DNA of 64,000 bases from Rhabdochlamydiaceae bacterium (GTDB lineage: Bacteria > Chlamydiota > Chlamydiia > Chlamydiales > Rhabdochlamydiaceae): the NCBI GenBank assembly GCA_047459655.1, contig JAJREF010000005.1, positions 1-64,000 on the forward strand, read 5' to 3'. A program made the translations under genes and the position numbers. The notes beneath the pieces are model-generated. The model did no database searches and had not been told where the DNA came from. It saw only the letters and a list, made by a program, of their open reading frames with translations. Shown one piece after another: positions 17,690 through 21,189 of this stretch. How positions within the stretch are numbered: the first letter of the stretch is position 1; each line of letters opens with the position of its first letter.

Positions 17690-19369
17690 TTACATGAGTT
17701 GTTTGATTTTCTCAGATAGGTTATTTTCCCAATGCTCATATGTCAGATTTTTTACCTTATTACTTCCAAGAATATCTTCTATTTGCTTAATCAAGGGAAC
17801 ACTTGGGTCTGTCTTTATTCCTAATCCTATTTGGATAAGGTAATCAGCATTTACCTCTTCCCAAGGATAAAAATCTATCAACAAAATAGGAGTTTTTGTG
17901 ACTATGGACTCAGCTATTGTAGCTCCTCCAGCTTTAGAAATACCTAAAGATGAAATATTCATTACTTCATTCATTTCAGTTGGAGAAAGGAGACCACAAA
18001 TGACCATTTTAGAAGGAGCCGATTTTTCGAGCTCTCTTTTTAAAGATTCATTTTTTCCGCAAATAAAAATATATTTAAGAGGCAACTGTGTTTTTGCGCT
18101 TTTGAGGTAATCAAAAATATTTTTTATCGAAGCTGTACTATATTTTCCCATGACAATAAAGATAGGGATTTCGTGGGGCTCTATACCCCATTTCTTTTTG
18201 AGAGATCTTTTATCTTTAATTTCATAAAAATTTGCACATGGATAGCCAATTAACTCGAAATTTTGACGTACGCCTTCTGCGCTTGTTTGCATGATTTCGC
18301 CAAGCTTTGTAAAAAGTATATGTTCATTGTCTTCTTCATTATAAAAATCAAGACGATTCATAGTTTGAAAAAGCGGTTTAAACATGCTCGATTTCATCGT
18401 TGGAATCCAAAAACGGATCATTTCAGAAGGGATGCAGCGATAATAAGATAGCAAAGAAGGACAAAGTTCATAGTCTGCATGACAAAGACGGAAAGGAACA
18501 CCTAGCATTGCAAGGGAAAAATCATCACACGTGTAAGATCTCGTAGAAATAATTAAATCTGGGCTTAATGAAATAACTTTTGCTTTGAGAGCGTAGAGAA
18601 AATTATTAGGAATATAATTTTCTATTTCACGGTATAGATCTTTTCGAGCTTTAATAACATCTAAATTATTGTTTTTTTGCAAAATATGCGAATAGACCAT
18701 ATCGTAGGTATATGTGTCTGTTGCAATCATCATGGGATCATATTTCTGGGCGATCTCTTCTACATCAATAATAAATGCCTGTATATTTGGTTGCTTGACT
18801 AAGAAATTGGCAATAGAAAGTGCAACAGAGTGATTACCTCCACTGCATGTGGTAGAGATGATCACAATAGTGAATGGATCTTTGATATTCCTTTTATAAA
18901 GAGGATACAAAGGAATGCTGGCATCATCCACAAAAGCTTTGACAGCTTTCTGATGCGTTTTTGCCCATTTTTTTTGGTCATGAACTTCTAATGCTCTTTC
19001 TAAGGGTATAAGAGGAGAGAAGTTGGGACTTCCAAAGTAATGAGAAACTCCAATAAGCGCTTTTGAAAAGGCTTTTTGAATGGCAAAAGAAGTCTCATCT
19101 TCCAACATATCAGCGATTATGGGAAGTATATGAATCTTATACGCTTTATAAATTTGGTTTGCCATTTGTATGTCTTTAAGCGTACAAGCAAGATCAAAAT
19201 GTAGGTTGCTCTCAAATGGATACCTTGAAAATTTATCCCCTCTCTTTGTAGTTAAAACCTGATTTTCTATATAGAAAGTGGCTCGCAGCTGATCTATTGA
19301 ATCACAACCAAAACATGAAGTCTGTAGAAAATAGAAAAACAAGAAAACAGAAAGAAGATTTTTTTTCAC
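17690..19369 (-). CDS. GT28-like (MGDG synthase/UgtP-type) glycosyltransferase with N-terminal signal-like extension
   Basis: SGGNHSVA, PDLIIST, FICGKNESL, ISKAGGATIAE and PWEEVNADYL GT-B motifs. Confidence 0.8.
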   Translation of the reverse strand: MKKNLLSVFLFFYFLQTSCFGCDSIDQLRATFYIENQVLTTKRGDKFSRYPFESNLHFDLACTLKDIQMANQIYKAYKIHILPIIADMLEDETSFAIQKAFSKALIGVSHYFGSPNFSPLIPLERALEVHDQKKWAKTHQKAVKAFVDDASIPLYPLYKRNIKDPFTIVIISTTCSGGNHSVALSIANFLVKQPNIQAFIIDVEEIAQKYDPMMIATDTYTYDMVYSHILQKNNNLDVIKARKDLYREIENYIPNNFLYALKAKVISLSPDLIISTRSYTCDDFSLAMLGVPFRLCHADYELCPSLLSYYRCIPSEMIRFWIPTMKSSMFKPLFQTMNRLDFYNEEDNEHILFTKLGEIMQTSAEGVRQNFELIGYPCANFYEIKDKRSLKKKWGIEPHEIPIFIVMGKYSTASIKNIFDYLKSAKTQLPLKYIFICGKNESLKRELEKSAPSKMVICGLLSPTEMNEVMNISSLGISKAGGATIAESIVTKTPILLIDFYPWEEVNADYLIQIGLGIKTDPSVPLIKQIEDILGSNKVKNLTYEHWENNLSEKIKQLM

Positions 19370-21189
19370 TTATGAATTATTAGCATTAATTGATTGTTAC
19401 GATTTTTGTAAAAATTATAATAAATAATTTTTGCTTGTTCAAGTTGATAAATCAGTTCTTTTTCTAATGGTTCGCGGGAAACAACCGGTTGGCGCAATAT
19501 TTCTTTGCCAAGGCAAATTTTTTGAAAAAGAGCTTTTGTTTGATGAGACAACTCTTCAAAATCCGATCTTTCGATTTTTCCTACTTCACAAATCTCTTTT
19601 AGATGATGAGGGAATATAGTGATAGCTATTCGCACACATTTTTTAATTTCATCATGACTTGGTGGATTTTTACGAGAGGTATAATTTCCCAGATCGATAA
19701 GAGCAACTTTCCCTTCTCCTCTATCAATTAAGAATGGGATGTTGTCGCTGCGTCCCAAAAGTAGGTTATTAGCATCTTGATAAGGATGCGTTGGTGTGAG
19801 AATATCATCAAGGCATGTCTTTAGTAAAAATCCGATAAATTCTTTGGCCACATGAGAAAATAGAGAAAGATTTTCTAAATATAGAGCAGTTTGAGACCAT
19901 AAAGTAACCCTTAAAACTGGTTGTTTTTCTTCGATTGTAAAATCTTTATAGCAAATAGCTCTTGGCACAATAAGATGTGTATATCGAGCTTCCCTACAAA
20001 GATGAGAAGCATGCCAATTAGCCAAAAATCGTCTTTTTGCGTTTTTGCACCCTAATTTCTTTAAAACTAAAGGAAGGTCAACAGGCACATATACAGTACT
20101 TATCCCACAAGCAGCTGTTGGCAAAGAATTGAGTTTCATAGTATCGGAAATGAGTTTAGTAGCCCCTCTCTTCTCATTCTTAGAAATGAGATATCTACGC
20201 ACAGAGTATCCACGAAAAGCACTTTGTATTTTTATGGCAGCTTCATCAATTCGCATAGGAGTTATTTCTTTTTTATTATTACACCAAGAGCCATCCCAAA
20301 GATGAATTGCGAGAGTATCTGGACTTACGTATTCTAATACTTCAGAAGTGGTAGTTTCCCGGTTTTTCCAAGGAAGTGGATAAAAGTAACTGCAAGGAAG
20401 AATGAGAATGTTTTCACAATCTGTTGCAAGCGCCATTTGACAAGCTCGACTAATTAAACCTGGGCCTGTACGTTTAATAATACCTTCGTCAGGCGCCTCA
20501 GCTTTAGAGCGAAGATGGTCAATACAATGTTTGATCACTTTGCTTTCTTTGCACGAACCCATTACAGCAGAGCCTACAAAAAATGGTTCCCCATAATGTT
20601 TGCCAATATAATTGAGCTCAAAACAGCTAAAAAAGCCGATATCTTGCCTTGTAAGCATTTCAAATGAATTAAGGCATACAACATCTGCATCACTATAAAT
20701 TCCTCCAAATCGATAAAGAACTTCTAGGCGCACTATATCTGCTTTTTCAGCCCATGTATCGGCTTGTTCAAAGCATCTTTTTGAGTGTTCGCATGACCAC
20801 TCAAACCCATGAATTTCTTTATCTGTCCACACTTTGATTTTCCAATGAGCGTGATATTTCTCCCAAGAACTAAAACAGGAAGCGACTTTTTCTGGAATTT
20901 CTGAGCCCAGCCAAATCAAGTGGATTATCTGAGGGATAAAAATTTGCTCTGAAGGACTTTTTAAATTACTACAAAAACGATCGAAGGTTGCTTTCACTGC
21001 AATCACATCTTTGTCGATATAAAATTCTTTTGCTGTTTCTTTACGTCCCCATTGCATTGCATCCCAAAAATCGTTAGTATGGAAGCCTCGACTCGTTTGT
21101 TGATAATTCAGCAGCCCTTCAAGAGAATAAGGAATTTCTGCAATCAGAGTCCCAGCAACAGCAATTGATAAAAATATTTTTTTAAACAT
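19366..21189 (-). CDS. Fusion: signal peptide, GT32/DXD glycosyltransferase, IQ motif, atypical kinase-like domain
   Basis: IPQIIHLIWLG, KADIVRLEVLYRFGGIYSDAD, TGPG, HLWDGSW; then IQSAFRGYSVR; C-terminal half homologous to 22671-23535. Confidence 0.8.
   Translation of the reverse strand: MFKKIFLSIAVAGTLIAEIPYSLEGLLNYQQTSRGFHTNDFWDAMQWGRKETAKEFYIDKDVIAVKATFDRFCSNLKSPSEQIFIPQIIHLIWLGSEIPEKVASCFSSWEKYHAHWKIKVWTDKEIHGFEWSCEHSKRCFEQADTWAEKADIVRLEVLYRFGGIYSDADVVCLNSFEMLTRQDIGFFSCFELNYIGKHYGEPFFVGSAVMGSCKESKVIKHCIDHLRSKAEAPDEGIIKRTGPGLISRACQMALATDCENILILPCSYFYPLPWKNRETTTSEVLEYVSPDTLAIHLWDGSWCNNKKEITPMRIDEAAIKIQSAFRGYSVRRYLISKNEKRGATKLISDTMKLNSLPTAACGISTVYVPVDLPLVLKKLGCKNAKRRFLANWHASHLCREARYTHLIVPRAICYKDFTIEEKQPVLRVTLWSQTALYLENLSLFSHVAKEFIGFLLKTCLDDILTPTHPYQDANNLLLGRSDNIPFLIDRGEGKVALIDLGNYTSRKNPPSHDEIKKCVRIAITIFPHHLKEICEVGKIERSDFEELSHQTKALFQKICLGKEILRQPVVSREPLEKELIYQLEQAKIIYYNFYKNRNNQLMLIIHK

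Follow-up and report, generated by a model that had tools for sequence, protein, structure and literature searches.

A single stop-free open reading frame (ORF) of 607 amino acids (19366-21189, minus strand) was found in a 64,000-nucleotide stretch of Rhabdochlamydiaceae DNA (GCA_047459655.1, contig JAJREF010000005.1, positions 1 to 64,000; hereafter the window), in which a GT32 glycosyltransferase is read through into a gene for an IQ motif and a kinase-like domain (IQ-kinase). The GT32-kinase architecture exists irrespective of the window copy. For the window copy itself, however, we consider it slightly more likely that the join reflects a one-base under-call of a run of A (20269-20274) than a real mutation. 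This assessment is based on the presence of separate genes in all six other DNA loci, the pattern of the GT32 tail, the error load of the assembly, the contig ends of one sequencing run (X1) and an extra base in another (X2). Judged by gene order, GT32 and IQ-kinase have long stood side by side in a chlamydial cassette of four genes.

Domain organization of the 607-residue open reading frame

ORF analysis and a Pfam scan confirmed the claim of an earlier note on this DNA that the reading frame is uninterrupted. The features described here all lie on the minus strand. According to hydropathy (2.3 over 11 amino acids; 2.1-2.9 in the orthologues), residues 1-17 (21139-21189) form a signal-peptide-like N-terminus, which ends at an A-EIPY boundary conserved in the orthologue sequences. 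The GT32 domain comprises residues 18-302 (20284-21138), as judged by Pfam and alignment. PF04488 matches at residues 99-182 with 50 bits (gathering cut-off 23) and PF04572 at residues 234-306, and the D167-A-D169 motif (20683-20691) is invariant in 56 aligned sequences. The domain indeed ends at HLWDGSW, with residue 302, but the methionine that the earlier note had placed directly after this motif, Met312 (20254-20256), comes nine residues on. The IQ motif (residues 316-334; 20188-20244) matches PF00612 (IQxxxRGxxxR) with 24.6 bits (gathering cut-off 20.3) and may bind calmodulin. No kinase model of Pfam or NCBIfam matched the ORF, and nothing in either library matched past the IQ motif. On the basis of conserved residues and a structure model, the part from Met312 onwards (19369-20256) was assigned to an atypical protein-kinase-like domain with a small C-terminal domain. 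The sequencing runs that contain this stretch include a lake water metagenome.

With CAZy family GT32/PF04488 (OCH1-like and inositolphosphoceramide mannosyltransferase-like enzymes by their source names), the window protein shares the PF04488 match above cut-off, the DxD motif and the HxWxGSW end, while it differs by the read-through into the kinase-like domain. Large clostridial toxin or SetA-type glucosyltransferases were rejected as candidates, as only motif-level matches of 22-110 residues and no delivery domains were observed, in line with ordinary GT-A kinship.

Sequence of the junction

In six of six other DNA loci (L021, L022 (=L026), L023, L024, L055 (=L027) and L056 (=L028)), GT32 and IQ-kinase are separate genes. 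Stand-alone chlamydial GT32 relatives are 60-70% identical, and the stand-alone kinase orthologues P0024 and P0063 begin at the position of Met312, which bears out the suggestion that this internal methionine marks a formerly separate gene. After HLWDGSW, a tail with three to five basic residues is present in all 27 close GT32 relatives counted, whereas the window protein has two and then departs from the pattern. Two out-of-frame stops lie just behind. From the frames and the Lys-rich tails of the orthologues, a TAA behind the run of Lys codons (20262-20264) is likely the ancestral GT32 stop, while a TGA in the third frame (20246-20248) gives an 11-nt overlap with the gene starting at Met312, a geometry as for the GT32 stop in L023. 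The tail pattern together with these stops indicates that the frame changed inside the six-A run at 20269-20274. If the run is made one base longer, a 12-residue tail and the 11-nt overlap result, the same as in L023.

A-AAA-AAG is a bacterial slippery sequence, and AAA-AAG runs of Lys codons recur at the end of GT32. We therefore considered whether a programmed ribosomal frameshift, or slippage at a conserved site in the Lys run, gives both a short and a long product across the family. We judge this very unlikely, since the frame of the kinase relative to GT32 varies over the six loci (0, 0, +1, +1, +2 and +2) and stops block the path in L021 and L055.

Assembly errors and the status of the join

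Homopolymer indels are described in a passage of PMC9262707 as a cause of frameshifts in long-read assemblies. In the assembly of the window (G000), 82 of the 200 genes testable against a genome of the same genus (G002) are frameshifted, which corresponds to 0.52 per kb; the reverse control gave 9 of 222. Most of the events (96 of 123) belong to the one-base-short class, and the breakpoints are enriched at long runs. A coding stretch of 4.9 kb would be free of errors with a probability of 0.08; the cassette shows no other error.

The contigs of X1 and X2 were compared with the window over 11000-28000. X1 displays no substitutions relative to the window but only indels, and 12 of the 12 listed are located in homopolymers or short repeats. 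Four of those listed are extra bases, three of them at the split points of PutA, MreC and AspC (12248, 16832 and 24582); these three splits, at least, are therefore assembly errors. The X1 contigs stop on both sides of the six-A run, and none bridges it. Of the other X1 ends that fall within a run, nine in all, seven are one base short of the run of the window (19% expected by chance), while both ends at the junction keep all six A, which is a hint that the true run is longer. The contig of X2, a strain with about 95% identity, covers 17651-22678; it has exactly one gap letter there and is one base longer than the window.

Several findings weigh against an under-call. In L022 and L024, GT32 and kinase are already in frame, with a single stop between them. 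The extra base of X2 is unplaced and could sit in 98 non-coding bases, and X1 is perhaps the source sample, with contig ends that are indirect evidence from nine ends. Errors affect only about 2.4% of the six-A/T runs observed in G000. Moreover, the exact 607-residue protein is present on two contigs, one of which has 1,340,546 bases and does not belong to G000, although the same reads may underlie both. Finally, a natural GT32-kinase fusion in another lineage (P0212/P0226, see below) shows that read-through is viable. The rough odds for a real join, which rest on judgement-call likelihood ratios, were 0.27-0.79, and the final weighing also allows for a two-base under-call.

We hold the competing explanation, a real and recent read-through, to be nearly as probable, at a little under an even chance. 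Slippage in the Lys-coding A-run would have removed the GT32 stop in this lineage, possibly with a population of mixed run lengths, to give a two-enzyme protein that is convergent with P0212/P0226 and keeps the IQ motif. The copy on the second contig, the low error rate per run, the motifs kept intact in the independent fusion, the rejection of a common origin of the fused forms on both halves together and a further natural fusion in the cassette (1,202 residues, in L097) all favor it, and the break of the X1 contigs is also compatible with a mixed population. However, with both out-of-frame stops and Met312 untouched, such a read-through would have to be very young, and the X1 ends and the extra base of X2 point rather to a longer run. 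The error load of the assembly and the lack of a second IQ-retaining fusion in the searches, which were incomplete, likewise count against it. Since the single ORF could have arisen from a slip of the assembly, caution is advised with fusions that appear in long-read genomes.

According to ORF and Pfam analysis, at least six genes of the window are split by frameshifts into two or three ORFs, which the earlier note had missed: PutA (11618-15324), MreC (16288-17453), AspC (23722-24941), UvrD (25999-27904), a Fic-domain gene (27901-29434) and TopA (36476-38312).

GT32-kinase fusion in another lineage

Two proteins of 599 residues, P0212 and P0226, from JGI/IMG and Logan, contain GT32 and the kinase-like domain in one chain. 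P0212 is 57% identical to the window protein over its whole length. The two are 91% identical to each other and differ at 55 positions, yet they share the same junction in two sources. Both have a hydrophobic N-terminus and an intact Lys tail, and their DxD, Lys, RxDN and Asp motifs are intact as well, while the IQ motif and the Met312 region are absent. Neither groups with the window protein in the tree of either domain, and monophyly of the fused forms was rejected on both halves together (approximately unbiased (AU) test, p=0.022; p=0.088 and 0.064 for the single domains). In the joint test, which had nine rows, the pairings P0005/P0063 and P0062/P0025 were deduced from contig size or cluster, and the L056 kinase was represented by a close relative. 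Judged from these trees, the P0212/P0226 fusion probably has a separate origin from the window junction. The expectation that homologues are always separate genes is thus contradicted by P0212 and P0226, although it describes the usual state, as in the six DNA loci.

Full-length homologues with the GT32-kinase architecture are accordingly known in P0212 and P0226 but not for the IQ-retaining junction. P0001 was the only protein with both domains among the 211 gathered before the search that retrieved P0212. A second IQ-retaining fusion was not found among the 150 best representatives, 15 long GT32 matches and 129 family genomes, searches that are incomplete. A word-index search with the C-terminal half matched P0001 and P0061 alone; because it missed P0212, its negative was given no weight. 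The full-length model of P0212, from a mixed alignment, reached a pTM of 0.52, with pLDDT below 50 in the kinase N-lobe.

Gene order of the chlamydial cassette

The order GT32, IQ-kinase, GT28-like gene is conserved in the six other loci, which belong to several families, and usually lies downstream of a nucleotidyltransferase/APH gene. In the window, the first gene of the cassette (21197-22618, minus strand) encodes a protein of 473 residues with a nucleotidyltransferase (CTP_transf_like) and an APH-like phosphotransferase domain, as identified with Pfam and NCBIfam. The fourth (17690-19369, minus strand) encodes a GT28/UgtP-like GT-B glycosyltransferase of 559 residues with a hydrophobic N-terminus, as judged by the same libraries and hydropathy; its NCBIfam matches to diglucosyl-diacylglycerol synthase are weak and far under cut-off. 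Hydrophobic N-termini are thus found in GT32 and the UgtP-like enzyme, but not in the stand-alone kinase and the product of gene 1. The IQ motif is lost in P0212/P0226 and in L022 and degenerate in L056, which indicates that the cassette branch can do without it.

The GT28-like gene frequently occurs by itself: among 13 regions that contain it, 10 are without the other three cassette genes, two have it beside the IQ-kinase and one is a fusion with GT32. No match to the kinase half or to the GT28-like gene was obtained in two genomes of the same genus, G001 (97% complete) and G002 (87%), and the cassette is therefore patchy. This absence and a resolvase gene next to the cassette in L056 suggest that the cassette is mobile or often lost.

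The L056 region (3716-11028, genome G398) contains the full cassette, in which gene 1 is inverted and the two kinase paralogues both occur, beside the resolvase gene. The natural fusion of 1,202 residues in L097 (2243-5851, genome G339) combines the GT28-like enzyme, GT32 and a third domain, which has no Pfam match and also ends a GT28-like protein of 914 residues in L056. In P0141 (270 residues), the N-terminal part of the kinase is joined to the C-terminus of the GT28-like protein; this is a single sequence, representing either a deletion or a misassembly.

Relationship to the neighbouring kinase gene

A second, distantly related IQ and kinase-like gene is located at 22671-23535 (minus strand) and is split by a frame change near 23320-23330, as seen from alignment, frames and tree. 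The upstream frame contains its IQ motif, the earlier note having missed that the gene lies in two frames, and the X2 contig has two gap letters over 22698-23344. The C-terminal half of the window protein is collinear with this neighbour, as had been claimed: the identity is 27% over 204 residues (E 2e-13), and all the motif pairs named before were found.

The earlier note had proposed a local duplication of the neighbouring gene, with fusion of the copy to GT32. The occurrence of the same domain 1.4 kb apart, with collinear motifs and 27% identity, speaks for this model. However, the C-terminal half is 59% identical to the stand-alone cassette orthologues, and the closest relative of the neighbour is a separate gene in G398 (49% identity). 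A tree constrained to monophyly of the two window copies was rejected (AU p=0.0017; 37 rows and 315 columns, fast search, LG+G4 trees), and a quick tree agreed in placing them in different clades. Both paralogues also occur together in L056, and GT32 and kinase are already adjacent in relatives. Since the genes were adjacent before and the copies fall in different clades, we conclude that no local duplication took place and only a stop is missing; the duplication model is rejected as extremely improbable.

Fold and family of the kinase-like domain

A structure model of the C-terminal half, built from an alignment of 35 sequences, reached a pLDDT of 94 and a pTM of 0.87. The 50 VIA-align matches listed were kinase-fold or kinase-related enzymes throughout, and Foldseek and VIA-align together retrieved Bud32/PRPK, Rio, WaaP, APH, PI3/4-kinases and SidJ (best Z 8.0, best E 7e-5). 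As the best Z is only middling, it is the uniformity of the match list that supports the fold. Model and matches support a bilobal, atypical protein-kinase-like fold, and the label kinase-like, which had been inferred before, is backed by them.

K377, D462, R480-x-D482-N483 and D499 are conserved in 32-34 of the 35 aligned members (34 each for K377, N483 and D499), and K377, RxDN and D499 are intact in the 607-residue protein. From residue order and the modelled secondary structure, K377, N483 and D499 would correspond to the beta3 Lys (VAIK), the Mg-binding Asn and the Asp of DFG. In place of the canonical D-x4-N catalytic loop, there is no Asp five residues ahead of N483, but the conserved D462 stands 21 residues ahead. 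D462 is presumably the catalytic Asp, and the spacing of about 20 residues between Asp and Asn recalls the longer insertion of SidJ. The conserved residue of the first long helix is Arg (R387) instead of the alphaC Glu.

The domain shares its fold with WaaP (6dfl), Rio2 (1tqi), Bud32/PRPK (4ww5) and APH(2'') (3uzr), with Z 7.7-8.0 over 173-192 residues, Foldseek E-values of 7e-5 to 1e-3 and the conserved Lys, Asn and Asp in common. At 10-16% identity, none of the four is singled out as nearest, and the window domain differs from all of them by its N-terminal IQ motif and by the roughly 20 residues between Asp and Asn instead of four. The calmodulin-activated, kinase-fold glutamylase SidJ of Legionella (Z 6.9 to 6k4k) resembles it in having a kinase fold and an IQ motif in an intracellular bacterium, and an insertion in SidJ's catalytic loop is described in part of PMC6858067. 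However, SidJ is much larger, is 9% identical, has its IQ motif at the C-terminus and lacks the catalytic Asp, whereas the IQ-kinase family has the motif at the N-terminus, keeps a conserved Asp that appears equivalent and sits in a glycosyltransferase cassette. A SidJ-type glutamylase was rejected on account of the N-terminal IQ motif and the conserved Asp. Viral kinases were matched as well. The best viral match to the fold, with E 1e-6 and a TM-score of 0.51, was better than that of any PDB chain and came from an uncharacterised protein of 757 residues in Pithovirus LCPAC101 (BFVD A0A481Z419).

Pkn1, PknD and Pkn5 are Hanks-type kinases of chlamydiae. The kinase fold is shared with Pkn5 (PMC8242063, in the part of its text that is available, which contains neither 'calmodulin' nor 'glycosyltransferase'), but the IQ-kinase family differs from the Pkn kinases in having no Pkinase match and a patchy distribution, with members in 54 of 401 genomes of the class. 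At E<=0.001, 470 representative proteins matched the family profile, a few of them through IQ repeats only. An IQ match at E<=0.05 was found in 15 of 20 scanned members and was above the cut-off in 11. One of the 20 has a weak DUF648 N-terminus, a domain which an excerpt of PMC3048545 places in predicted Inc proteins. This N-terminus and the IQ matches suggest that longer members of the family may be host-directed. A PDB sequence search with the family profile returned only an IQ match (E 0.04), and the plasmid collection searched gave no match.

In genomes of family f20 with 1.0-1.1 Mb (G046, locus L053:1658-4629, and G052), two to three divergent IQ-kinase-like copies lie close together, and a copy of 539 residues groups with the neighbour gene of the window.

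Proposed function

The cell would likely produce an exported GT32 of about 310-315 residues and an IQ-kinase of 296 residues starting at Met312. Since the adjacency of the genes is conserved and P0212 is a fusion, a shared pathway can be proposed. Gene 1 pairs a nucleotidyltransferase with an APH-like phosphotransferase, a combination expected, by analogy with LicA/LicC, for the activation of a small building block, which it would phosphorylate and activate with a nucleotide. Sugars would be added by GT32 and the UgtP-like enzyme, both probably exported to judge by their hydrophobic N-termini. The kinase-like enzyme would phosphorylate the resulting glycan or glycolipid, or a partner, and host calmodulin might act as a switch by way of the IQ motif. 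The cassette may therefore serve to build, at the cell surface or the host interface, a phospho-decorated glycan or glycolipid. The most far-reaching version is improbable in our view: an undescribed four-gene cassette with exported glycosyltransferases and a calmodulin-gated kinase at the host interface, two independent fusions, and a slippery A-run switching between one- and two-protein forms.

What remains irrespective of the window copy is a chlamydial family of IQ-bearing atypical kinases without a family model, one branch of which belongs to a conserved cassette and, in one lineage or more, is truly fused to GT32. It suggests a substrate for an orphan kinase that can be tested, and it is a candidate for activation by calmodulin in Chlamydiae; to our knowledge, such activation has so far been known from effectors of other bacteria, SidJ and CopC among them. 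The two domains each belong to a known superfamily, and our searches of the open literature gave no paper on their combination, the cassette or the IQ-kinase family; subscription papers and supplements, including kinase-family catalogues, may list them.

Other features of the window

Just downstream of the cassette, the X2 strain carries 1,369 other bases in place of 17588-17651, a difference the size of an insertion sequence. A second glycosyltransferase cluster (32616-36345, minus strand) comprises a GT2 and two more GT32 genes, which are 27% identical to the fused GT32. The genomes of the same genus hold orthologues of this cluster instead of orthologues of the cassette.

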